From the UHGV virus genome UHGV-0366180: a stretch of 19,310 nucleotides of DNA; one strand, written 5' to 3'. Positions 5,158-17,564 of the stretch are shown here, one piece after another. The translations under genes were made by a program, and so were the position numbers. Position 1 is the first letter of the stretch. Each line of letters begins with the position of its first letter. The DNA is from a virus. Below the pieces are notes generated by a model. The model saw only the letters and a list, made by a program, of their open reading frames with translations. It was not told the DNA's origin and did not search any database.

Positions 5158-5473
5158 GGTATTTCTCCAAGTTTCTTTTTAGATATAACCAACCATAGTC
5201 AGTCCTTTCTACACCCATAAAGAGTGGAGCCATCACAACTTTACCGAAAGTATTCCTGTGTTGGCAGATTTCAAAGGAATATTCTTTCTCAATGTCAATC
5301 CCGTATTTGTACAGGACTGCTTTTAAAACTTGTTCATTATCCAGAAGTGTATCTGGAGTCTCACCATACTTTTCAAGTAACGGGTCATTCATAAACACCG
5401 TCATAGAAATATTGTAGTTTGAGAAGTGGCTCTTCTGAGCCACACCCTCTTTATTAATGTTCTGTGAATCCAT
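5150..5473 (-). CDS. Hypothetical protein (107 aa)
   Basis: ATG at 5473..5471 with AAGGGG 9 nt upstream; the ORF-track start at 5482 is TTG lying directly against the SD. Confidence 0.45.
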   Translation of the reverse strand: MDSQNINKEGVAQKSHFSNYNISMTVFMNDPLLEKYGETPDTLLDNEQVLKAVLYKYGIDIEKEYSFEICQHRNTFGKVVMAPLFMGVERTDYGWLYLKRNLEKYRV

Positions 5474-6209
5474 TATAACCAACCCCTTTTAACCAGCACT
5501 TCAGGTTATTAGCATCATAATTCAGTTTCGGGTATGAGGTTACATGGAACTGCTCACCATCATAGTAGACAATATCTGCAATCCATAGTCCATTCTCTTT
5601 ACAGAAGTCTTTATCTGCTTTAGAGGTAATTGGATTAACTTCTACAAAACCATCTACACCCAAATCCTTTAAGCTACCTACAATACCTTTGCAGATAACG
5701 CATGTCTCAGATACTACCACAAAAAGTTCTTGGCTTTCAAGCTCTACAATGTATTCACCAAGCTGTACTTTAGGGAGATTTGATTGCTTCATAATCTTCC
5801 CATCGGCTGCACGGACAATCGCATACCACTCTTTACCATCAACCACTGACATTCGAATAATACACTCTTGACCAGTACGCTTTTCAATGTCTGCAAGACG
5901 TTTTAAAGCTTCTTCATAGTCATCTGTGTACTTCAGGTCATTATTATGGCAAACAGCTTCCATAGCACCGTTGTGGTCATGTTGTGACAGGTAAATCAAA
6001 CCGTCAAGAACATATTGCAAATCTGCCTGAGCATCCAATGTCTCAATGGGGTCTTTCTCTTCAATTGCTTTTACAAGCTCTTTTGCTTCTTCAAGCATAC
6101 ACAGAGATTGAGATTTTAAAGATTCCCAATACTCATTACTGTAAGGTTGCTTTTGAGTGTTTCCACAACGAAGGTTCCAGTTTTTTACTGATTCTCTTGA
6201 GTTAAACAT
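5454..6209 (-). CDS. Two-domain protein: N-terminal MazG-like all-alpha NTP pyrophosphohydrolase domain (tentative) plus uncharacterised C-terminal domain (251 aa)
   Basis: Acidic helix pattern LEEAKELVKAIEEKDPIETLDAQADLQYVLDG resembles the MazG/HisE EExxE...ExxD metal-binding signature. The C-terminal ~125 aa carries CxxC (SETCVICKG) and no motif I can name. ATG 6209..6207 with SD AAGGAG. Confidence 0.5.
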   Translation of the reverse strand: MFNSRESVKNWNLRCGNTQKQPYSNEYWESLKSQSLCMLEEAKELVKAIEEKDPIETLDAQADLQYVLDGLIYLSQHDHNGAMEAVCHNNDLKYTDDYEEALKRLADIEKRTGQECIIRMSVVDGKEWYAIVRAADGKIMKQSNLPKVQLGEYIVELESQELFVVVSETCVICKGIVGSLKDLGVDGFVEVNPITSKADKDFCKENGLWIADIVYYDGEQFHVTSYPKLNYDANNLKCWLKGVGYNGFTEH

Positions 6210-6433
6210 TCGGACTCCTTAAAATATCTGTTAACTTTTAGCTCTCGTGTTTCAATATATTCTAGATGCTCACGTAGCTCTTGACGTTTAAGCATTAGGT
6301 GCTGCATTTGAGATTCAACAGCTTCAACTTCTTTGATTATTGACTCTCTAGCATTTGCAAGGATGCGCTCAAGTTCTTCAATCTTGCTGTCAACTTTTGC
6401 TACATGACTCACAGCTTTGCTTTTGTTAAACAT
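6185..6433 (-). CDS. Hypothetical coiled-coil protein (82 aa)
   Basis: ATG at 6433..6431 (the ORF-track start is TTG at 6448); heptad-like charged sequence (IEELERILANARESIIKEVEAVE); 3' end overlaps the next gene's start by 25 nt. Confidence 0.4.
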   Translation of the reverse strand: MFNKSKAVSHVAKVDSKIEELERILANARESIIKEVEAVESQMQHLMLKRQELREHLEYIETRELKVNRYFKESECLTQENQ

Positions 6434-6454
6434 TTTATTCTCTCTCAATAGTTA

Positions 6455-6952
6455 TCAAGCACAATTTGCTTTCATTACCTTATGGATTCTTTTTTCAGCA
6501 TCTTCATAAGTTTCTTTAGTAATAAACTTAATTGCTGCAATATTGGCATTGTAGAAGAGTCTGAGCTTAGAGTCAATCCTTTTTGTCATTACATCGAATT
6601 TATGTTGAAGGTTTGCTTCACCATAGACTAGGCCACCTTTTGTGTAGTAGGTCTGAATGATGTAAAAGTCAAAAAATTCTTTTCCAAAGCTCTCAATATC
6701 TTTTTTAATATACTCAGAAGAAGTCTCGTAAGTCATCCAATCACTCTCCTTAGTGACTACCTTCTTCCGAGTCTTCCCAGCAACTTTTCTTTTTGTCACA
6801 CTGTTAAGCTGTTTCTTTCCGATATAATATTGTCCAGTCTTCTTACAGTGTACTAAATAGACAAAGCCAAAATGTTTAGTGGGGTCAACTTCCCCACATA
6901 AAGATACCCAATGACCGTAGGTGGGGCAATTTCCAAATCCTTTAATCTTCAT
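6455..6952 (-). CDS. GIY-YIG-like nuclease (165 aa); free-standing homing endonuclease or EndoII/DenA-like host-DNA nuclease
   Basis: GFVYLVHCKKTGQYYIGKK has canonical GIY...(11 aa)...YIG spacing. The motif is internal (about residue 30), as in T4 endonuclease II from memory. ATGA-coupled to the upstream HNH gene. Confidence 0.5.
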   Translation of the reverse strand: MKIKGFGNCPTYGHWVSLCGEVDPTKHFGFVYLVHCKKTGQYYIGKKQLNSVTKRKVAGKTRKKVVTKESDWMTYETSSEYIKKDIESFGKEFFDFYIIQTYYTKGGLVYGEANLQHKFDVMTKRIDSKLRLFYNANIAAIKFITKETYEDAEKRIHKVMKANCA

Positions 6953-7449
6953 TCATAAGCTTCTCCGTGATTTGAAAACTCTTTATGTAGTTCTTCTCTT
7001 TTCTTTGTGACTGCATCTTTGGCATCTTCAATACTGTCAAAATACCCCAGAAAGTGAGATACTCCGTGTGTCATAACTCTGGCCTTCCATTTTTGGTTAG
7101 CCTTATAGAAAGATACACCCTTAACTCCAGATGTGTTGTTGGAGTGTGTTCTTCTATTCCAAGAGTTTTCAGCTTGTGTGCAAACCCTTAGATTTAATCT
7201 CCGATTATCATTAGTAATGCCGTTGCGATGGTCTACTCTGTTAGGTAGAAAACCGTCTGTGTACAGGATTGCTAAATCATGAGCCATATAGGGTTTTCTT
7301 TTAATTTTTATCCTAATATAACCTCGCTTATGTGGTGTACCTGCAATGGAACCTATAACTGTTCTGTTAGCTGATTTCTTTATCCACGTAAAGACCCCTG
7401 TTTCGGGGTCATAGTGTAGATATTCTTTAAGTATCTGCTGAGTCAACAT
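6949..7449 (-). CDS. HNH endonuclease with C-terminal AP2-type DNA-binding domain (copy A)
   Basis: HNH motif VDHRNGITNDNRRLNLRVCTQAEN; AP2-like tail GVKGVSFYKANQKWKARVMTHGVSHFLGYFDSIEDAKDA. Start is ambiguous: ATG 7449 or 7464, or TTG 7473; all overlap the flap exonuclease 3' end. Confidence 0.75.
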   Translation of the reverse strand: MLTQQILKEYLHYDPETGVFTWIKKSANRTVIGSIAGTPHKRGYIRIKIKRKPYMAHDLAILYTDGFLPNRVDHRNGITNDNRRLNLRVCTQAENSWNRRTHSNNTSGVKGVSFYKANQKWKARVMTHGVSHFLGYFDSIEDAKDAVTKKREELHKEFSNHGEAYE

Positions 7450-8473
7450 TTGGAGTCCAACCATACTTTTCAAATGAAAAAATATCTGATTTATTTCGCT
7501 CTTGATAAGCTAGGAAGAAATGCTGTTCCATTAACTCTAATGGTGTTTTGGTAACAGTCTGTCCATCCCATGACACATAGGTATAAGAATCTTTTTTAGC
7601 ATAAAGTTCATAGATAGCGTCAAGACACTCTTTGTAGGTCTCTTTACCCTCTAAAGCATTCATCACAGCTACTTTACCAGCACCTTTTAGGCCGAAGTAG
7701 TTGTCTGCATTATCTCCAGCAACAGCCTGATAACACAAGAATTTAAAACCTACGCCAACTGTTTTTGCAGCTTTTGGTTTTGATTTGATAGGGCAATCCC
7801 AGATATCACCAACATTATTGTCAGCAATAAAAATTAGTGGTGACTTTTCATAAGTCATATCAATACAATAAGTTCCTTCAGCTTGTCGAAGGTCTTTGTC
7901 AATACTCATAAGAGCAGCTTTCTTACCCATCTTTTCAGCTTTAGCGATTACGATTGAATCGGCTTCGAAGCCCCCCTTTAAGAGCTTAAACTCTGGTCTT
8001 GACAGAAGGTATTCACGACAAGCAACTAAGTGTGTTGGTGTGACAGCATCTTTACGGTTGCCTTGATATTGGTGCTCAAGACCTTTAACGTCTTTATGTT
8101 TATGCACACCTTTCTCTGTTAAATAGCCTACCCAAGTTCTCTCTTTCCCAACAACCTTAAGCCATTCCTGAAGCACCTGTTGAGTAGCCATGATAGCTTC
8201 TTTTTCACTCTTAGCTTCTTTCCAAGTCTGTCTTTCCCATTCATCTTCATCAAATGTCAGGCCAAGCTCTTCCACAAGGATTCTCTGGTCTGCTAACCAT
8301 CTTGCAGCATCTTTCGCATTATCAAATGGTTCAGATTCTTCTGCTGTGAGTTTATTAACGTATTTATACTTTGCTTTCTCAACTACACAAGCACCTTTAT
8401 AGGCAATGCTGTCAGAGTCAATAAAGACATGTGTAACTGAATCGGGAAGCTTTGTTAATGTGTACTTCTCCAT
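7427..8473 (-). CDS. 5'-3' exonuclease / flap endonuclease (FEN, RNase H-like; T7 gp6 / T4 RNase H class), 348 aa
   Basis: N-terminal PIN-like VFIDSDSIAYKGA; downstream AGDNADNYFGLKGAGKVAV resembling the GDxxDN helix-hairpin-helix region of phage FEN nucleases; ATG 8473..8471 with SD GGAG. Confidence 0.75.
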   Translation of the reverse strand: MEKYTLTKLPDSVTHVFIDSDSIAYKGACVVEKAKYKYVNKLTAEESEPFDNAKDAARWLADQRILVEELGLTFDEDEWERQTWKEAKSEKEAIMATQQVLQEWLKVVGKERTWVGYLTEKGVHKHKDVKGLEHQYQGNRKDAVTPTHLVACREYLLSRPEFKLLKGGFEADSIVIAKAEKMGKKAALMSIDKDLRQAEGTYCIDMTYEKSPLIFIADNNVGDIWDCPIKSKPKAAKTVGVGFKFLCYQAVAGDNADNYFGLKGAGKVAVMNALEGKETYKECLDAIYELYAKKDSYTYVSWDGQTVTKTPLELMEQHFFLAYQERNKSDIFSFEKYGWTPNVDSADT

Positions 8474-8491
8474 TATGGCTCTCCATATGAA

Positions 8492-8518
8492 AAAGCCCCA
8501 TACTAAGTACAGGGCTTT
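8492..8518 (-). terminator. Strong intrinsic terminator downstream of the SSB gene
   Basis: Minus RNA AAAGCCCUGUAC-UUA-GUAUGGGGCUUU followed by UUC: 12-bp stem including two G.U pairs, 3-nt loop, U5 run. Confidence 0.6.
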
Positions 8519-8535
8519 AAAGTAACTTTTAGAGA

Positions 8536-9393
8536 TTAGTCTTCTGTATCGAAGTCTTCATCTTCTTCGTCATCTGGGTCTGGCAAGTCTTCATCGTCAC
8601 CATCATCAGAATCATTCGAAGATTTATGGTCTGTTGCGTCTTCTTCAGTGATTTCACCGTTATCTTCGACACCATCAAGACCAAGCATAGCCAGTTCATC
8701 TTCATCCAGTTCAGGTTCACCGTTAGCACCGTTACCACCAGTGTAAGGTACAAGAGTATCAATGATAAACTGTTCCTGAATAGGCTTTGTCAAGACATTG
8801 TTCTCAAAAGTGTAGAAGTGAGTAGAAAGAATCACACTACCAAAAGAACCGTTACCAACTGCAATATCTGGATGAATTACATCATAGTTCTTATCATCTT
8901 CATGTTTGTCAGATGCTTGAGCTTTGATTTTCTTCATCGGCTGCTTAACAGCTACACGCTTACCATTTACTTCTTCAATCAGCATTACAGGGAATGACTG
9001 TTTAGCTGTCCATACAGCACCATCTTTATAAGCTGCTGCACGACTTACTTTCAAGATGTAGTAAGTGTCTGCTTCAAATGGTGGTTTGCAACCAAACTTC
9101 TCTTCGAAGTCATCTGCATCAACTGCTTCAGTGGTAACTTTATCCCAACCTTCTGGGTTTTTCTTAGACTTAGTAAACTCTTTAAACAGCTTGTTACCAT
9201 CTTCTGCCAGAATTGAAACGCTGTAGTTACAGTCTTTGCCTGGGAATTTCTTATCAATGGACTTGCCTTTTCCCGGACGTGGTGAAGTGTTCAGGTAATA
9301 AAACCAGACATCTTTCAGCAGGTAACGCAAAGTTTGACGCTCAGTACCATTGTACTTCTCTACCGGAGCTTTCATTTTAACAACTTTAGACAT
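8536..9393 (-). CDS. Single-stranded DNA-binding protein with acidic C-terminal tail (T7 gp2.5-like), 285 aa
   Basis: The final ~45 residues are almost entirely Asp/Glu and end ...DEEDEDFDTED, the hallmark of phage SSB tails. Position in a T7-type replisome cluster, with its own promoter and terminator. The OB-fold itself was not verifiable by eye. Confidence 0.6.
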   Translation of the reverse strand: MSKVVKMKAPVEKYNGTERQTLRYLLKDVWFYYLNTSPRPGKGKSIDKKFPGKDCNYSVSILAEDGNKLFKEFTKSKKNPEGWDKVTTEAVDADDFEEKFGCKPPFEADTYYILKVSRAAAYKDGAVWTAKQSFPVMLIEEVNGKRVAVKQPMKKIKAQASDKHEDDKNYDVIHPDIAVGNGSFGSVILSTHFYTFENNVLTKPIQEQFIIDTLVPYTGGNGANGEPELDEDELAMLGLDGVEDNGEITEEDATDHKSSNDSDDGDDEDLPDPDDEEDEDFDTED

Positions 9394-9615: not shown

Positions 9616-9893
9616 GATATTCTCCGATATACTTGATATTCAAACACATTTTCTTTAATTATAAAGAGCCAACCAATATTATGTTTAGGTATAGTAATGG
9701 TGACTGTGATTATGCTGTGATGGAACTTTTCTTCTGCCTCAACGCCTCCATCACATTTCATGTAGAGCATTCTATAGAACCTATCAACCTTTGTCAAACA
9801 CTCTTCCTGAAATTCATTTAAACTTTTTTCTTCAAAGAATGGTATGAACCCCTCTCTTTTATAACTGTCACTCAGTTTCAAACGGGCAGTCAT
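9612..9893 (-). CDS. Hypothetical protein (93 aa)
   Basis: ATG at 9893..9891 has GAGG 6 nt upstream; the ORF-track GTG at 9905 and the first ATG at 9899 lie too close to that SD. Overlaps the primase-helicase 3' end by 26 nt. Confidence 0.4.
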   Translation of the reverse strand: MTARLKLSDSYKREGFIPFFEEKSLNEFQEECLTKVDRFYRMLYMKCDGGVEAEEKFHHSIITVTITIPKHNIGWLFIIKENVFEYQVYRRIS

Positions 9894-11853
9894 CTGCATC
9901 CTCACTTAATACAGGTGGAATCGTTGAGCTTTGACGCTGTTCTTCAGTATAGACTTCACCAGTCTCACGGTCAAATACTTCATCCTCATAATGAGGTAAA
10001 GAGTCGTCATAATGGTCTTCATCTTCACCAATACCAAACTGTTGACGAATATTTTCTGCTGCACCATCAATGTCAACACCACATCCAGAAGCTTTGATGA
10101 GACGTCCTGTATCTGGATTGTACCAAGTATGACCAGCAATACCTGTTGACTTACCATGACGACGACACTTAGTTAACTTGATTTTTGTCAAGTTTTTCTT
10201 AACAGGGTCTGGGTCAACCTTGTTACGCATTAACAGAATGTTGTTCATAGAAATCTGGAAGTATGCACCAGAACCCTTAATATCCTCTTCAGAGATATCT
10301 CCACCTTCAGAGTTAGCTTTCTGACCACCTGCACTCTTACGAACGTGACATACGTTTACCTGCGCATACTGGTAGCGTTTGCAACGACGCAATAGCTCAG
10401 ACAAAACTTCTTCTTCATCCGTATCAGAACGTGACAGGGCTAACGTGATAGGGTCAAGAATGATAATCTTACAGTCTAAACTGTTAACAAGATAGTCAAC
10501 AAACTCTAGCAGGTTATCTTGGTCAATTGCCCCTTGATGGTCAACGATATGGATACGACGGCCTTTAGATAGTTCTGCGTGTGCTCCTTTTAATTCATCC
10601 CAATCCCGTTCATCATAAGGAATCTCAGAAATCTGCTTGCTCAGGTGGATTGCACAGAGCATCTCCATCAACTCTTCATAGGTATCTTCTACAGGAATTA
10701 CACCGATATTATAATCAGTTTCTTTCCAAGCTGAGTAAATCATCTCACGAGTGTAAGCTGACTTACCTACTGAAGATGGTGCTGCAATAGTTGTAATCTC
10801 ACCTAAACCGTAACCACCATAAGTCAGCCTGTTCAAATCTCCGAAAGATTCTGGGAAAGGAATCAATGGAATCTGACCACGATTCTTCATTGCCTCAAAA
10901 CCATCTGCGAAGTTCTTGATACCAGCAGGGCAGTAACGTGGTGCATTGTAGATACGCTGCTTAAATCCTTCCAGAACTGTATCTTTTTCTTTATAGAACT
11001 TTGTCCACCATTCGTTAAGGTCTTTTACACCTTCTGGATACTGGAATAAACGAACCTTCTCAATAGGTAGGATACCAGCAGCCTCTTTAGTGGCTTTAGC
11101 ACCTGCTTCATCGTTATCAAAGCACAAGTAAATCTCATCAAATGATGTAATGTACTGATAGTTATCCTTGATAGACTTGATGTTTGCACCTGATGGAACA
11201 GATACGTGACAGTAATTCTTACGACGAGATTTGTCCTTAATCGCAAGAGAAGTCATATAGATTGCTGTCGCACATTCCATCTCACCTTCCCAGATGAATA
11301 GACGGTTACCACCTTCTGGAGCAATCCATGAACCGAACATTGCCAGTTCACCTTTAATGTCTCCAACACCACCAGAAAAGTCTTTTAACTTACCTCGTAG
11401 GTGCTCTTTTGGGTGGTCTTCTGGGTAACGGTGACGAACACGGTATCCAACATGCTCTAGCTTGCCATCTTCATTGCGTTTGTAAGTTGGGTAGAAATGC
11501 GCGTCAATTTCACCATCACTGTCAATGTCAACCTTGATACCCAAACGCTCAAGAACTTTTGCAGGGATTTTCCTGTCTTTCAAGTCCATTGCTTCAAGGT
11601 TTTCTTTCACATCGTCTAAATCCATTCCACGGAAAGTACGGTTTTTATTGTCTGAACCAGTAGAATAAGTGCTCACGATTTGTCCTTTATCAAAATCCCA
11701 CTCTGGGAAACCTTTGTTACAGCTAAAGCAAGTCATCGAATAAGAATCATCGTCATGATGATAGATTGAACCAGCATCTGATGAACCACAACGTGGACAT
11801 GCACAATGACCAATAAACTGACCAGCCTCTTTCAATTTACGACCTTTAGACAT
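9868..11853 (-). CDS. Bifunctional DNA primase-helicase (T7 gp4-type), 661 aa
   Basis: N-terminal Cys4 zinc ribbon (CPRCGSSD...CFSCNK); TOPRIM motifs (IWEGEMECATA, CFDNDEAG); Walker A GxxxxGKS (IAAPSSVGKSAYT) and Walker B-like KIIILDPITL. ATG 11853..11851 with SD AGAGGTG; the ORF-track start at 11859 is GTG. Confidence 0.85.
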   Translation of the reverse strand: MSKGRKLKEAGQFIGHCACPRCGSSDAGSIYHHDDDSYSMTCFSCNKGFPEWDFDKGQIVSTYSTGSDNKNRTFRGMDLDDVKENLEAMDLKDRKIPAKVLERLGIKVDIDSDGEIDAHFYPTYKRNEDGKLEHVGYRVRHRYPEDHPKEHLRGKLKDFSGGVGDIKGELAMFGSWIAPEGGNRLFIWEGEMECATAIYMTSLAIKDKSRRKNYCHVSVPSGANIKSIKDNYQYITSFDEIYLCFDNDEAGAKATKEAAGILPIEKVRLFQYPEGVKDLNEWWTKFYKEKDTVLEGFKQRIYNAPRYCPAGIKNFADGFEAMKNRGQIPLIPFPESFGDLNRLTYGGYGLGEITTIAAPSSVGKSAYTREMIYSAWKETDYNIGVIPVEDTYEELMEMLCAIHLSKQISEIPYDERDWDELKGAHAELSKGRRIHIVDHQGAIDQDNLLEFVDYLVNSLDCKIIILDPITLALSRSDTDEEEVLSELLRRCKRYQYAQVNVCHVRKSAGGQKANSEGGDISEEDIKGSGAYFQISMNNILLMRNKVDPDPVKKNLTKIKLTKCRRHGKSTGIAGHTWYNPDTGRLIKASGCGVDIDGAAENIRQQFGIGEDEDHYDDSLPHYEDEVFDRETGEVYTEEQRQSSTIPPVLSEDADDCPFETE

Positions 11854-12040
11854 TAGCACCTCTTCGTTGTAGTTCTGCTTTTAATCCATTTTCAATCTTG
11901 TCCAGCTCATGAATTTCATCTGCAATCTCTTTCCTTCGTGATTCAACTCTCTTAAGACGTTCAATCATTACCTCATTGGAAAGAGATGAGAGTTCCACTA
12001 AACGGTGGTCAATAACTTTAAAATTGTCTTTTACTCTCAT
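11846..12040 (-). CDS. Hypothetical small coiled-coil protein (64 aa)
   Basis: ATG 12040..12038 with GAGAGG 6 nt upstream; overlaps the primase-helicase start by 8 nt. Confidence 0.4.
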   Translation of the reverse strand: MRVKDNFKVIDHRLVELSSLSNEVMIERLKRVESRRKEIADEIHELDKIENGLKAELQRRGANV

Positions 12041-14084: not shown

Positions 14085-14341
14085 GTAAGCCTCTTTTAAG
14101 TAACTATTAAGTTTTAATCTTTTATCTTAACGTATTCTATACGTTATACTTTAAAGCTTTTTAAAAGCTATTAAATAATCTTTTAAGAGTTTTAAAGTAT
14201 CTGTATAGTTAAACTGTTAAGTAACCTTTTAAGTAAAAACCCACTTCGCAAAGATTAACACCTTGTCAAGCGCATTGTCAACTTGCTTTTTATAATTTTT
14301 TGCAGTAATGTATGAGGTTAATGATTTTAGAGGGAGTAAAA
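14085..14341. promoter_or_regulatory. Divergent AT-rich control region between the minus-strand train and the polymerase gene, with repeated motifs
   Basis: About 257 bp non-coding. TTAAGTAA at 14096-14103, 14217-14224 and 14229-14236; tandem TTGTCA at 14263-14268 and 14275-14280; TATAAT at 14291-14296; SD AGGGAG at 14331-14336. Confidence 0.45.
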
Positions 14342-17041
14342 ATGGAAAACGTAGATTTTAAAAACTTACATTTAGTTGGTGATACAGAAACTGATGGTTT
14401 ACTCCTTGAGTTCACTAAAGTGCACGTAATGGCTTTCGCAGACTATAAATCTGACGATGAAGAGCCACCTGTATGGGTCTTTACAGATGAGCCTATCCTC
14501 GGTCACAAGTACACTAAGTACATCAAGGGTGGCTTACGTGAAGGTATTGAGTTTGCGTTAAAGGCAAAACGTCTTTGCATTCATAATGGTCTAGGTTATG
14601 ACTGGTGGGTTTTCAATCACATTGCACCGGATTTATGGAACTTTGATAACCCAAAGTGTAAGCCGTGGAGTAATTTCTTTCAGGATTCTCTTATCCAGTC
14701 TCGTGTTCAGTGGATGGATAGACCAACTCCAAAGGGTTATAAAGGTGCTCATGGTTTGGCTGCATGGGGTGCTCGTGTTGGTGTTCGTAAGCCAGAGATT
14801 GAGCATTGGGGTGTGTGGAATGCAGAAATCTTCACTCGTGTTGTAGAAGATATCCGTATTAACGCCAAAACTAAACGGGCACTTGATAATGAGTATCTCA
14901 AGCTTAAGAAGTGTGGCATCGACACTTATGAAACCTACATGCGAGCTAAAGAAACATCTTTCTGGATGAGTCAACAAGCTATCAATGGTTGGAAAGCTGA
15001 TAAAGAGCTTATGGAGTTCCATGTAAAGGAACTTGACAAGTTGACTAATGAACTTGCTTCAGAAGTTGAACCGCATCTACCTCCAACTATTAAGACCAAA
15101 GGTAAAGTCACTGGAGAAGAGTTTGCAAAAGCTTGGAATGAGTATGTTGAAGCATTTGGTCATGCAGATGGACTGAAGAGAATCACCAAGTACCCTAAGA
15201 CAAAGTATCGTCAGCAGGTACGTAATGGTGAGATGCAAACATATGAAATCAAGCCATTTGGTAAGCCAACTACAAAGATTTTTAACATTGAAAAAAGGAA
15301 TTGCTATACACCAACCAACACTGTAACTGGTGAAGAGTACAAGGAAGGCTTTGTAGCAATGAAGGATGCTCGTGCAATTTGCAATGAGTTGAACGCAAAG
15401 ATTGGTAAGAAATGCAAAGACTGGAAGCCAGTAAAAACAGTCAAAACTGTGAAGTACTATAACAGCCACGTTGTTAACCACTTTGAACTTGAGTCAAGTC
15501 GCTACACAGGTTTGATTGATGCACCATATACACCAATTGAGTTTGAAGTTTCTCGTATGACTCAGGTAGCAGTTGTTAAAGACTACTTGAAATCAGTTGG
15601 TTGGATTCCAGATGACTGGAACTACAAGAAAGACTCTGATGGTCGCCCTGTCAAAGTTTGTCGTTTCAAAGACAATAAAAAGATGATTACAAAGCATCCT
15701 AAGTGGCAGGAAATGGTTGAGCGGTGTGGTTTGAGTTATGTTGAACACGAAGGCGTCCAGTACATTGAGCATAACTGGTCTGTGAAGAAGTACACAGATT
15801 TGCTTGAGCCTTGCTTAATCCGTACTTCACCAAAACTTACTGAATCATCTTACGATACGATTGAAGGTGAGCTTGGACAGAAGATTGCTAAATACTACAC
15901 TTTGATGCACCGACGCAGAACTATTGAGAACTCAAAGGATGATGAAAAAGGTTGGTTGAACCAGATTCGTCCTGATGGTCGCCTTAGTGCTGGTGCAATG
16001 GTGTTTGGTACTTCAACTGGACGTATGACACAGTATGGTATTGTAAACGTACCGTCTGGTGCTGCTGTCTATGGGGAACCAATGAGGGCAGTGTGGATTT
16101 GTGAGGAAGGTACTAACGTTGTCTCTGTAGACATGAACTCAGCCCAGCTAGTTCTTCTTTGTAACTTTATGGGTGATAAAGACTTCACCAAAGCGGTAAC
16201 GCAAGGTAAAGAAGAAATTGAGTTCATTCGTCAAGAAGATGGACGCTATTACTGTAAACACTTTGATGAGTACCTCAACCCAGAGATTGATAAGTACCTT
16301 CGCTATGACTCTGAGAATGACCTGTACGTTGTCTATTCAGGGACTGATGCACATACACTGAACAGTATTTACTTTAACTTGAACGATGAGCAGGACATCT
16401 TGACTTGTCGAGCTACTCAGGATGAGAATCTTCTTCATGAGATTAGCAAGGGTCGTAAGAAAGCTAAGAATGGTATCTATGCACTGCTGTTCGGTGCAGG
16501 TGATGAGAAGTTTGCTAAGACGATTAAAGCTGCAACTACTCAGGAAGGTGCGCTGACTAAACAGACTTACTTTATTCGTTTGCCTAAAATTAAAAAGCTG
16601 CTAGATGACTTGGAAGCTGACTACAAAGCAACTAAAAAGGCACTTGAAGAGGTGTTTGGTAAGACTGCTGCAATTTCTAAAGGGGGCTTTGTAAAGGTTG
16701 CTGGAGCTTGGTTGTGGTGTAAATCTCCACATAAGTTATTGAATTATTTGCTCATGGGTTCGGAAAGTCAGATTCAAAATGAGGCAATTAACCTTGCTTG
16801 TAGAAGAGTATGTGAAGAAGGATTGACAAAATTAAATGGACGAAAACCAGCAATCGGTGCTAGGCTTTTGCTGGCATACCACGATGAAAACAGTTGGGAA
16901 TGCCCAGAAAGTATGACTCAAGAAGTTAAAGCCATAACTGACTGGATGTATGGTCAGGCATCTAAGAATTTAGGTTTGAAGAGTGAGACGCTTGTAACTG
17001 GCACAGGTAAGGTTGGTAAGAGCTGGTATGAGGTACATTGA
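14342..17041 (+). CDS. DNA polymerase, family A (T7 gp5-like) with 3'-5' exonuclease domain, 899 aa
   Basis: Exo I VGDTETDGL; Exo II HNGLGYDWWVF (compare T7 HNGHKYD); pre-motif-A TSTGRMTQYGIVNVPS; motif A SVDMNSAQLVLL; motif B RKKAKNGIYALLFGAG; motif C YHDE. Start moved from the ORF-track 14312 to ATG 14342, which has SD AGGGAG 5 nt upstream. Confidence 0.9.
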   Translation: MENVDFKNLHLVGDTETDGLLLEFTKVHVMAFADYKSDDEEPPVWVFTDEPILGHKYTKYIKGGLREGIEFALKAKRLCIHNGLGYDWWVFNHIAPDLWNFDNPKCKPWSNFFQDSLIQSRVQWMDRPTPKGYKGAHGLAAWGARVGVRKPEIEHWGVWNAEIFTRVVEDIRINAKTKRALDNEYLKLKKCGIDTYETYMRAKETSFWMSQQAINGWKADKELMEFHVKELDKLTNELASEVEPHLPPTIKTKGKVTGEEFAKAWNEYVEAFGHADGLKRITKYPKTKYRQQVRNGEMQTYEIKPFGKPTTKIFNIEKRNCYTPTNTVTGEEYKEGFVAMKDARAICNELNAKIGKKCKDWKPVKTVKTVKYYNSHVVNHFELESSRYTGLIDAPYTPIEFEVSRMTQVAVVKDYLKSVGWIPDDWNYKKDSDGRPVKVCRFKDNKKMITKHPKWQEMVERCGLSYVEHEGVQYIEHNWSVKKYTDLLEPCLIRTSPKLTESSYDTIEGELGQKIAKYYTLMHRRRTIENSKDDEKGWLNQIRPDGRLSAGAMVFGTSTGRMTQYGIVNVPSGAAVYGEPMRAVWICEEGTNVVSVDMNSAQLVLLCNFMGDKDFTKAVTQGKEEIEFIRQEDGRYYCKHFDEYLNPEIDKYLRYDSENDLYVVYSGTDAHTLNSIYFNLNDEQDILTCRATQDENLLHEISKGRKKAKNGIYALLFGAGDEKFAKTIKAATTQEGALTKQTYFIRLPKIKKLLDDLEADYKATKKALEEVFGKTAAISKGGFVKVAGAWLWCKSPHKLLNYLLMGSESQIQNEAINLACRRVCEEGLTKLNGRKPAIGARLLLAYHDENSWECPESMTQEVKAITDWMYGQASKNLGLKSETLVTGTGKVGKSWYEVH

Positions 17042-17051
17042 TGGTGTTGAA

Positions 17052-17564
17052 ATGATTACAGAAATTCGTCTTAAGGAGCTATTGGACTATGACCCCGAAA
17101 CAGGGGTCTTTACTTGGAAGTTTAGAGAAGGTAATGCAAACTTTAACTCTAGATTTGGAGGTAAGAGGGCTGGAAACTACAGAACAAATACTGATGGACA
17201 CAAGTCAGTTCAGTTGTTGATTGATGGAAGGAGTTACCAAGCAAATCGTTTAGTTATCTTGTATATGGATGGATATCTGCCTGATAAAACCTTACAGGTT
17301 GACCATCAGAATGGGGACGGTTGGGACAATAGGTACTTGAATTTAAGGGTTTGTACAGCTTCACAAAACTCTTGCAATCGGTCAAGAAAGTCTCCATCTG
17401 GGTTGCCAAAAGGTGTACAGAAGATAAGTAAAAGGTTTCGAGCAATGATACGTTTACAAGGTAAAAACTATCATCTTGGTATGTTTGACACACCTGAAGA
17501 AGCCCATAAAGCTTACTGTGAAGCTGCTATTAAACTCCACGGAGAGTTTGCAAAACTAAGTTGA
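17052..17564 (+). CDS. HNH endonuclease with C-terminal AP2-type domain (copy B)
   Basis: HNH motif VDHQNGDGWDNRYLNLRVCTASQN; AP2-like GVQKISKRFRAMIRLQGKNYHLGMFDTPEEAHKAY; shares the YDPETGVFTW block with copy A. An alternative start at ATG 17028 is possible. Confidence 0.75.
   Translation: MITEIRLKELLDYDPETGVFTWKFREGNANFNSRFGGKRAGNYRTNTDGHKSVQLLIDGRSYQANRLVILYMDGYLPDKTLQVDHQNGDGWDNRYLNLRVCTASQNSCNRSRKSPSGLPKGVQKISKRFRAMIRLQGKNYHLGMFDTPEEAHKAYCEAAIKLHGEFAKLS

Follow-up and report, generated by a model that had tools for sequence, protein, structure and literature searches.

Free-standing homing endonucleases that combine an HNH nuclease with an AP2 domain have been described for phages, cyanobacteria and protists in work cited by Barth et al. 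(2023, PMC10448857), and the T4 mobE/I-TevIII-type and ICP1 genes treated in the same paper lie between conserved replication and nucleotide-metabolism genes and mark a foreign patch in near-identical genomes. The T4 Seg endonucleases (SegE) and the catalytic domain of I-TevI belong to the Pfam family SegE_GIY-YIG (PF19835), whereas T4 endonuclease II (EndoII, DenA) belongs to a different family. Here we analysed a 19,310-nt stretch of the UHGV virus genome UHGV-0366180 (the window), which is part of the replication/nucleotide-metabolism module of a Felix O1-like myovirus (genus Felixounavirus, subfamily Ounavirinae) and carries, on the minus strand, an HNH-AP2 gene (6949..7449) followed by a GIY-YIG gene (6455..6952). 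A first-pass annotation of the sequence had taken the two for a translationally coupled, two-component nuclease module. Comparison with related phages leads us, with good confidence, to a different reading: HNH is an optional gene of the free-standing homing endonuclease kind, GIY-YIG is a resident, and the two are independent genes with different histories. Because about one-third of the relatives carry the HNH gene and all keep the GIY-YIG gene, we consider them neighbours by invasion rather than parts of a two-part enzyme.

The evidence for this reading comes from the distribution of the two genes. A sensitive blastn search of the 3.2-kb region around the locus against 50,697 phage records returned about 300 Ounavirinae records in three states: those that matched over the full length, those of equal length in which the HNH gene was too diverged to align, and those about 491 nt shorter, from which the HNH gene was gone and in which the GIY-YIG gene was kept. 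The states were counted with two junction probes, one spanning the uninterrupted exonuclease|GIY-YIG junction of phage skuden and the other the exonuclease-tail|HNH junction of the window. HNH-less junctions were found in 167 records and occupied junctions in 92, which together make up the 258 records covering the region; the allele of the window itself is present in 28 records. Occupancy varies within a single species (in Felixounavirus Alf5, pinkbiff carries the gene and Alf5 lacks it) and within other genera (Moogle against Mordin and Sf17, EcSzw-2 against SUSP2), and the empty arrangement is also found in the distant Erwinia phage Hena2. Ten HNH genes sampled from the occupied site fall into three allele classes, namely class A (the window, ekra, wV8, Henu12 and Moogle), class B (Felix O1, fjerdesal and EcSzw-2) and class C (VpaE1 and pinkbiff), which share 53–57% amino acid identity between classes, with conserved ends and a divergent core, and occupy the same site. 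The first-pass annotation had placed the locus correctly between replication and nucleotide-metabolism genes, but only the HNH gene is an insertion there, the GIY-YIG gene being a fixed core gene of the subfamily. Its fallback, a simple mobile homing-endonuclease insertion should relatives lack the pair and keep an intact empty site, fits the HNH gene, which is the only one absent from the 167 records; the GIY-YIG gene is present in all relatives sampled.

Pairwise alignments with the HNH-less skuden, SUSP2, Alf5 and REP6 reduce the difference to a single clean gap of 485–491 nt. The inserted segment of the window lies at 6954..7446 on the minus strand (about 493 nt, a 491-nt gap in the alignments), and both of its bounds are an ATG within (A/T)ATG. 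In HNH-less phages the exonuclease gene ends with ...TGG GAG CCG TGT ATG AAT GAA GAT TAA, and the GIY-YIG gene starts at the ATGAAG within it, so that the two overlap by 11 nt. The empty site can be written as ...AATTGGGAGCCGTGT ATG AATGAAGATTAAAGG..., and the empty junction sequence reads ...AATTGGGAGCCGTGTATGAATGAAGATTAAAGG... In the window, the insert starts right behind the ATG that has turned into the HNH start and ends with ...GGAGAAGCTT ATG A|ATG AAG. The exonuclease of the window receives a new 7-residue tail that is read from the 5′ end of the HNH gene in a different frame, and the alternative C termini of the exonuclease are ...GWTPNVDSADT and ...NWEPCMNED, each followed by the stop. 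At the other end of the insert, GGAG lies 10 nt upstream of the GIY-YIG ATG, a spacing equal to that of GGGAG in the empty site, and the minus-strand bases 6952..6949 read ATGA, in which the HNH stop TGA shares bases with the GIY-YIG start ATG, in agreement with the overlap reported in the first-pass annotation. All three HNH allele classes rebuild a Shine–Dalgarno-like sequence and an ATGA overlap for the GIY-YIG gene, a regularity that selection to keep this gene expressed would explain.

The sequences beside the insert are mosaic. On the upstream side, identity to HNH-less relatives drops at 7450..7543 (minus strand), a co-conversion-like tract apparently imported with the HNH gene: over the last 90–120 nt of the exonuclease gene, identity to the HNH-less Alf5 and skuden falls from 95–100% to 73–83%, and in other pairs of occupied and empty genomes the upstream tract extends up to about 630 nt. 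On the downstream side, the stretch of reduced identity to HNH-less relatives is short in the window (6893..6952, minus strand) and reaches about 100–130 nt in pinkbiff and EcSzw-2. Four independent occupied/empty pairs are 95–100% identical in nucleotides away from the site and 63–83% identical in the flanks beside the insert, with tracts of varying length. In the comparison of pinkbiff with the HNH-less Alf5, the genomes are 97–100% identical outside one patch of about 1.25 kb, made up of the final ~630 nt of the exonuclease gene, the whole HNH gene and the initial ~130 nt of the GIY-YIG gene; inside it, pinkbiff is 62–88% identical to Alf5 and 94–100% identical to VpaE1, a carrier of the same allele. 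The other three pairs have shorter tracts. The pattern in pinkbiff is what homing with co-conversion would be expected to leave behind. Although they lack HNH, REP6 and BPS17W1 retain the Felix O1-type, HNH-associated haplotype of the exonuclease 3′ end to about 45 nt from the junction before continuing as empty-site sequence, and they look like products of HNH loss by recombination near the site. Because these two genomes keep the HNH-associated haplotype so close to the junction, the differences strictly tied to HNH occupancy shrink to TGGACNCCAA (linked with HNH) against TGGGAGCCNKKT, right at the junction. A preference of AP2 domains for GC-rich DNA has been reported (PMC10448857), and the GC-rich GGGAGCC of the empty site is, as a speculation, a candidate recognition element.

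The HNH protein itself fits this behaviour. The gene, of allele class A, encodes 166 amino acids from the ATG at 7449 (alternative upstream starts are ATG 7464 and TTG 7473) and matches phrog_99 with an E value of 2e-71. Its HNH superfamily assignment was borne out by the Pfam model HNH_3 (31.1 bits against a cutoff of 24.8), which covers residues 62–104 of the 174-aa open reading frame (ORF; 7162..7290, minus strand); the catalytic motif in this region (VDHRNGITNDNRRLNLRVCTQAEN) is kept in classes A, B and C, and DH..N..N is intact in all ten sampled copies, all of which are intact genes under purifying selection. The AP2 call of the first-pass annotation stands on homology rather than on a direct match. 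The predicted AP2-type DNA-binding region (7012..7131, minus strand) matches the Pfam model with an E value of 0.005 and a score of 17.6 bits, below the cutoff of 33.3; we assign it because the protein is homologous over its full length to paralogues, one of which has an above-threshold AP2 domain, and because it aligns with their AP2 regions. That paralogue is Bas63 gp46 (41% identity, full length, E 1e-40), whose C-terminal region matches AP2 at 51 bits (E 1.7e-13), and another is the second HNH protein of the window (full-length alignment, E 5e-35), whose matching region reaches 26.7 bits (E 7e-6), also below the cutoff. With the described HNH-AP2 homing endonucleases, the HNH protein shares the N-terminal HNH_3 domain, a predicted C-terminal AP2 domain, the free-standing intergenic position by conserved replication genes, the presence/absence polymorphism and the location at the boundary of exchanged tracts. 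Nothing fundamental sets it apart from that class, its specifics being that it inserted precisely where a stop and a start overlap and that at least three divergent alleles exist for this one site. It resembles the T4 mobE/I-TevIII-type and ICP1 genes in genomic position and in marking a foreign patch, but it comes from a different phage lineage and from a nuclease family other than the T5orf172 genes emphasised in PMC10448857. In the Citrobacter phage Moogle (1593–2095 of the sequence listed here as L018) the HNH gene is annotated as a 339-nt coding sequence; the full 166-codon ORF is intact there, with 84% identity to that of the window, and the GenBank start is probably mis-set.

We propose that, in a mixed infection, the HNH enzyme would cut or nick the unoccupied allele at or near the ancestral junction, where the exonuclease stop overlaps the GIY-YIG start, probably guided by its AP2 domain. 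Repair from the occupied genome would then copy in the HNH gene together with a flank of variable length. The insertion is seamless: it gives the exonuclease a new C terminus and recreates a Shine–Dalgarno sequence (GGAG) and the ATGA stop/start overlap for the GIY-YIG gene, so that expression of the operon is preserved.

The gene that would be kept expressed in this way is the resident at 6455..6952 (minus strand; ORF107 of Felix O1, g57 or bas63_0057 of Bas63), a stand-alone SegE-type GIY-YIG nuclease gene. Its 165-aa product matches SegE_GIY-YIG PF19835 with an E value of 9.4e-28 (97.4 bits against a cutoff of 25, residues 21–138); the profile searches placed both the GIY-YIG and the HNH_3 assignments above threshold. 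The catalytic domain (residues 21–138; 6539..6892, minus strand), delimited by the Pfam envelope, conservation and secondary structure, includes a basic β-hairpin at residues 50–69. The GIY and YIG motifs lie at residues 29–45 and are internal because they are preceded by an N-terminal 'GHW' extension that is conserved throughout the family; past the catalytic domain there are about 27 amino acids with a single helix (150–164). Comparison of domains and secondary structure with the family detected no C-terminal DNA-binding domain (NUMOD, helix–turn–helix (HTH) or zinc finger) in the protein, which upholds the earlier description of a GIY-YIG ORF with an internal motif and no DNA-binding extension. 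Ten residues are invariant over 119 family representatives (G29, Y32, Y43, G45, K47, W72, Y75, S78, E112 and N135), among them the classical GIY tyrosine (Y32), YIG tyrosine (Y43), catalytic glutamate (E112) and asparagine (N135). R62 is at least 90% conserved in close relatives, and its equivalence to I-TevI R27 comes from a non-significant hhalign alignment (probability 0.4%) and is a hint only. The predicted fold is GIY-YIG α/β, with SLX1 among the fold matches. The protein thus shares a Pfam family and the Tyr/Tyr/Glu/Asn set with SegE and I-TevI; relative to I-TevI it adds a small N-terminal β extension with the conserved GHW, the very basic β-hairpin and the one C-terminal helix. Unlike the Seg and I-TevI enzymes, it is without a C-terminal DNA-binding module, and its gene is not polymorphic in presence but a core gene under strong purifying selection. 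Searches of PDB sequences with phmmer and a 12-sequence profile found no nuclease, so that sequence alone does not reach the solved GIY-YIG structures; PADLOC and NCBIfam gave no match for the protein, and a literature search on PF19835 and phrog_447 found nothing.

Two other identities for the GIY-YIG protein were considered and rejected. The label 'NAD synthetase', attached to it in PHROGs (phrog_447) and in many GenBank and RefSeq records, including the Felix O1 RefSeq record and those of cyanophages, is unsupported: SegE_GIY-YIG is the sole Pfam match, NCBIfam gives none, and the predicted fold is GIY-YIG. Nor is the protein the published anti-retron Ec67 'GIY-YIG' protein Bas63 gp77 (PMC11482910): the Bas63 orthologue is bas63_0057, and bas63_0077 (21949–22464 of L020) has no detectable similarity to the GIY-YIG protein of the window and no Pfam match, and is a separate gene outside the window.

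With tblastn, 297 phage records, practically all those of Ounavirinae, gave a GIY-YIG copy of 60% identity or more. Its place is always downstream of the exonuclease gene, including in Hena2, and no presence/absence polymorphism was seen in about 300 genomes. Amino acid identity to other genera is 86–87% for the GIY-YIG protein, 89–93% for the exonuclease, 75–80% for MazG and 42–48% for the 87-aa protein encoded next to it; to Hena2 the corresponding values are 61%, 54% and 39%, with no match for the 87-aa protein. The ratio of nonsynonymous to synonymous substitution rates (dN/dS) of the GIY-YIG gene is 0.03–0.06, the same as that of the exonuclease gene, and conservation is alike in genomes with and without HNH. 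A profile search of 1.84 billion representatives collected 2,266 family members; among the best 150 of these, 68 are at most 200 aa long and 82 are longer, and the long members are extended at the C terminus by domains of the NUMOD or HTH type, as is typical of Seg/I-TevI homing enzymes. Short stand-alone relatives (30–40% identity) occur in about 400 records of T4-like cyanophages (cyanomyoviruses), where they carry the annotation T4-like gene cluster 213 and hold a conserved genome position; examples of short relatives are found in Synechococcus phage S-SM1 (2926–3387 of L021) and Roseobacter phage CRP-7 (2974–3459 of L022), and further relatives in Stenotrophomonas and Vibrio phages. Rather than a homing gene in decay, the form without a DNA-binding domain may represent a conserved gene that is widespread in phages.

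We weighed these data against other explanations of the locus. A translationally coupled two-component module of HNH and GIY-YIG nucleases could appeal to an ATGA overlap that is real and is kept in three HNH allele classes, but 167 of about 259 relatives have the GIY-YIG gene without HNH, and in these phages it is coupled to the exonuclease gene instead, with its conservation unchanged. Since the GIY-YIG gene overlaps the exonuclease gene in HNH-less phages and each HNH allele preserves the coupling, the coupling is a property of the GIY-YIG gene and whatever lies upstream of it; and since start/stop overlaps are common to nearly all adjacent gene pairs of the operon and so are the norm there, the ATGA overlap says little about a partnership of the two nucleases. 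An obligate module is refuted by the HNH-less genomes, and we regard a module of any kind as highly improbable. A second alternative is that the HNH gene is ancestral at the site and no longer mobile, its patchiness having arisen by repeated precise loss and ordinary homologous recombination. The divergence of allele A between Felixounavirus and Mooglevirus parallels that of the flanks, and REP6 and BPS17W1 have the appearance of recombination losses; however, all ten sampled copies are intact and under purifying selection, the VpaE1-like donor patch centred on HNH in the otherwise Alf5-identical backbone of pinkbiff indicates a gain, and the empty arrangement extends to distant Ounavirinae such as Hena2. 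We think it unlikely that loss and ordinary recombination, without homing, account for the pattern. Several observations nevertheless weigh against invasion of a resident locus by a homing gene. Patches similar to those described here could arise by general phage mosaicism without a nuclease, the cutting of the empty site by the HNH enzyme being a step that we infer. The divergence of allele A between genera is similar to that of its flanks (synonymous divergence, dS, of 1.6 against 1.2–1.3), so that part of the pattern is explained by vertical persistence over a long time and repeated loss. The universal presence of the GIY-YIG gene is also what would be expected of a homing gene gone to fixation. 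Last, in Escherichia phage EC6 (JX560968.1, 58566–59058) the GIY-YIG gene, recovered by tblastn in two pieces, is interrupted, giving two ORFs of 87 and 91 aa in BFVD; this is the sole disrupted copy seen and could be a sequencing error or a real pseudogene.

The role of the resident gene is a separate question. The first-pass annotation had suggested a T4 EndoII-like enzyme that nicks or degrades host DNA for nucleotide salvage, a suggestion that draws on the short stand-alone GIY-YIG protein with an internal motif, as in EndoII, and on its location in a replication and nucleotide-metabolism module. The structure comparison it had called for returned a predicted GIY-YIG fold but a weaker match to T4 EndoII than to I-TevI, EndoII has no sequence-level match to the 165-aa protein, and the protein resembles EndoII no more than it does the rest of the superfamily. 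No phage DNA modification is known that would protect the genome of the phage itself, which we also count against this reading. SUSP1 and SUSP2, which carry an orthologue (86.5% identity in SUSP2), are experimentally characterised 'superspreaders' that, unlike T4, release intact plasmids, and do so far better than T4 (PMC5241400); like Felix O1, they are described as being without known hydrolytic endonucleases (PMC5241400). Host-DNA degradation by the GIY-YIG protein thus appears improbable. Somewhat less doubtful, though still unlikely, is that the GIY-YIG gene is a selfish homing or marker-exclusion endonuclease gene swept to fixation in Ounavirinae, with the locus a 'homing-endonuclease island'. 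Seg-like homing enzymes make up the greater part of the family, NUMOD/HTH extensions are present in about half of its close representatives, the HNH gene landed directly beside the GIY-YIG gene, and many GenBank records use the label 'GIY-YIG homing endonuclease'. Against this stand the missing DNA-binding domain, the uniform presence in about 300 genomes, the low dN/dS across genera and a long-range conservation above that of the neighbouring exonuclease and MazG genes; a fixed selfish gene without empty targets would be expected to decay, which is why we disfavour it. On our preferred reading, the GIY-YIG protein would be a SegE-type catalytic domain that lost, or never had, the sequence-reading domains of the Seg and I-TevI enzymes. 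Most likely, although we say so with low confidence, it is a domesticated nuclease that serves the replication/recombination module together with the natively coupled exonuclease, and not a host-DNA shredder. A more specific version, that it is the structure-specific endonuclease of Ounavirinae, acting in debranching, Holliday-junction resolution or fork processing alongside the T7 gp6-like exonuclease, is a tentative proposal to which we give a rather low probability; the Felix O1 RefSeq annotation lists no resolvase, and by analogy with SLX1, GIY-YIG domains can perform such a role.

The window contains a second HNH_3 and AP2 paralogue (17013–17564, plus strand; 40% identity to the first), which starts inside the last 29 nt of the DNA polymerase gene (14312–17041) and is also tucked onto the 3′ end of a replication gene; Felix O1 has been reported to carry six HNH copies (Whichard et al. 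2010, PMC3185647). The first HNH gene contains a perfect hairpin, GACCCC-GAAACA-GGGGTC, at 7393..7410 (minus strand), in codons 14–19 and within a 24-nt block that is invariant across alleles. The same perfect hairpin is present in the second gene at 17091–17108 (plus strand), again in codons 14–19, and in both genes it lies inside an identical 29-nt block. The 24 nt, TATGACCCCGAAACAGGGGTCTTT, are unchanged in all ten sampled HNH genes of the first site, which represent three allele classes and three genera, and the adjoining codons vary synonymously; the same 36 nt are found at 94–97% identity in HNH paralogues elsewhere in many genomes. This conservation suggests a constraint at the nucleotide level, which might be an RNA hairpin or a seed for gene conversion.

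Around the locus, a stretch of 3.2 kb matches Escherichia phage ekra at 98% identity and Felix O1 at 92%. The minus-strand gene order is primase/helicase (9868–11859), a 285-aa acidic protein, 5′–3′ exonuclease (7427–8473), the HNH ORF, the GIY-YIG ORF, the 87-aa protein, a MazG-like pyrophosphatase (5454–6209), NrdA and NrdB. The exonuclease, of the FEN/T7 gp6-like type, was identified from phrog_107 (E 2.5e-62) and the annotations of relatives. Both nuclease ORFs are real genes, with full-length orthologues in every sampled relative that carries them and dN/dS of 0.03–0.2. A promoter and terminator scan of 5300–8700 gave a result no better than shuffled sequences. Felix O1-like sequence is also present at the locus in records under the names Campylobacter phage A132/A126 and Staphylococcus phage SA1 (93–96% identity), and the Listeria phage LPML1 record has a weak match (68% over about one-third of the query); a wrongly named host, contamination or a chimeric assembly is the likely cause in each.

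Many GenBank records already carry annotations of both genes, the first as 'HNH homing endonuclease' and the second as 'GIY-YIG homing endonuclease' or 'NAD synthetase'. The occupancy of about 36%, the three alleles at one junction and the co-conversion footprints appear not to have been remarked before, although they are unsurprising. Overall, we see an ordinary mobile element beside a mildly interesting conserved nuclease, and the analysis flags the widely propagated mis-annotation of the latter. The locus illustrates that nuclease genes lying side by side in a phage operon with a start/stop overlap should not be read as a functional module on that ground, and that seamless insertion of a homing endonuclease gene can restore the coupling. 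Felix O1-type phages are in use for biocontrol and therapy, and as a clean natural homing site, where three HNH-AP2 alleles compete and co-conversion tracts are visible, the locus could help the study of how homing genes shape the mosaicism of these phages. The more interesting part is the small, strongly conserved stand-alone GIY-YIG nuclease, core to Ounavirinae and with relatives in marine cyanophages.

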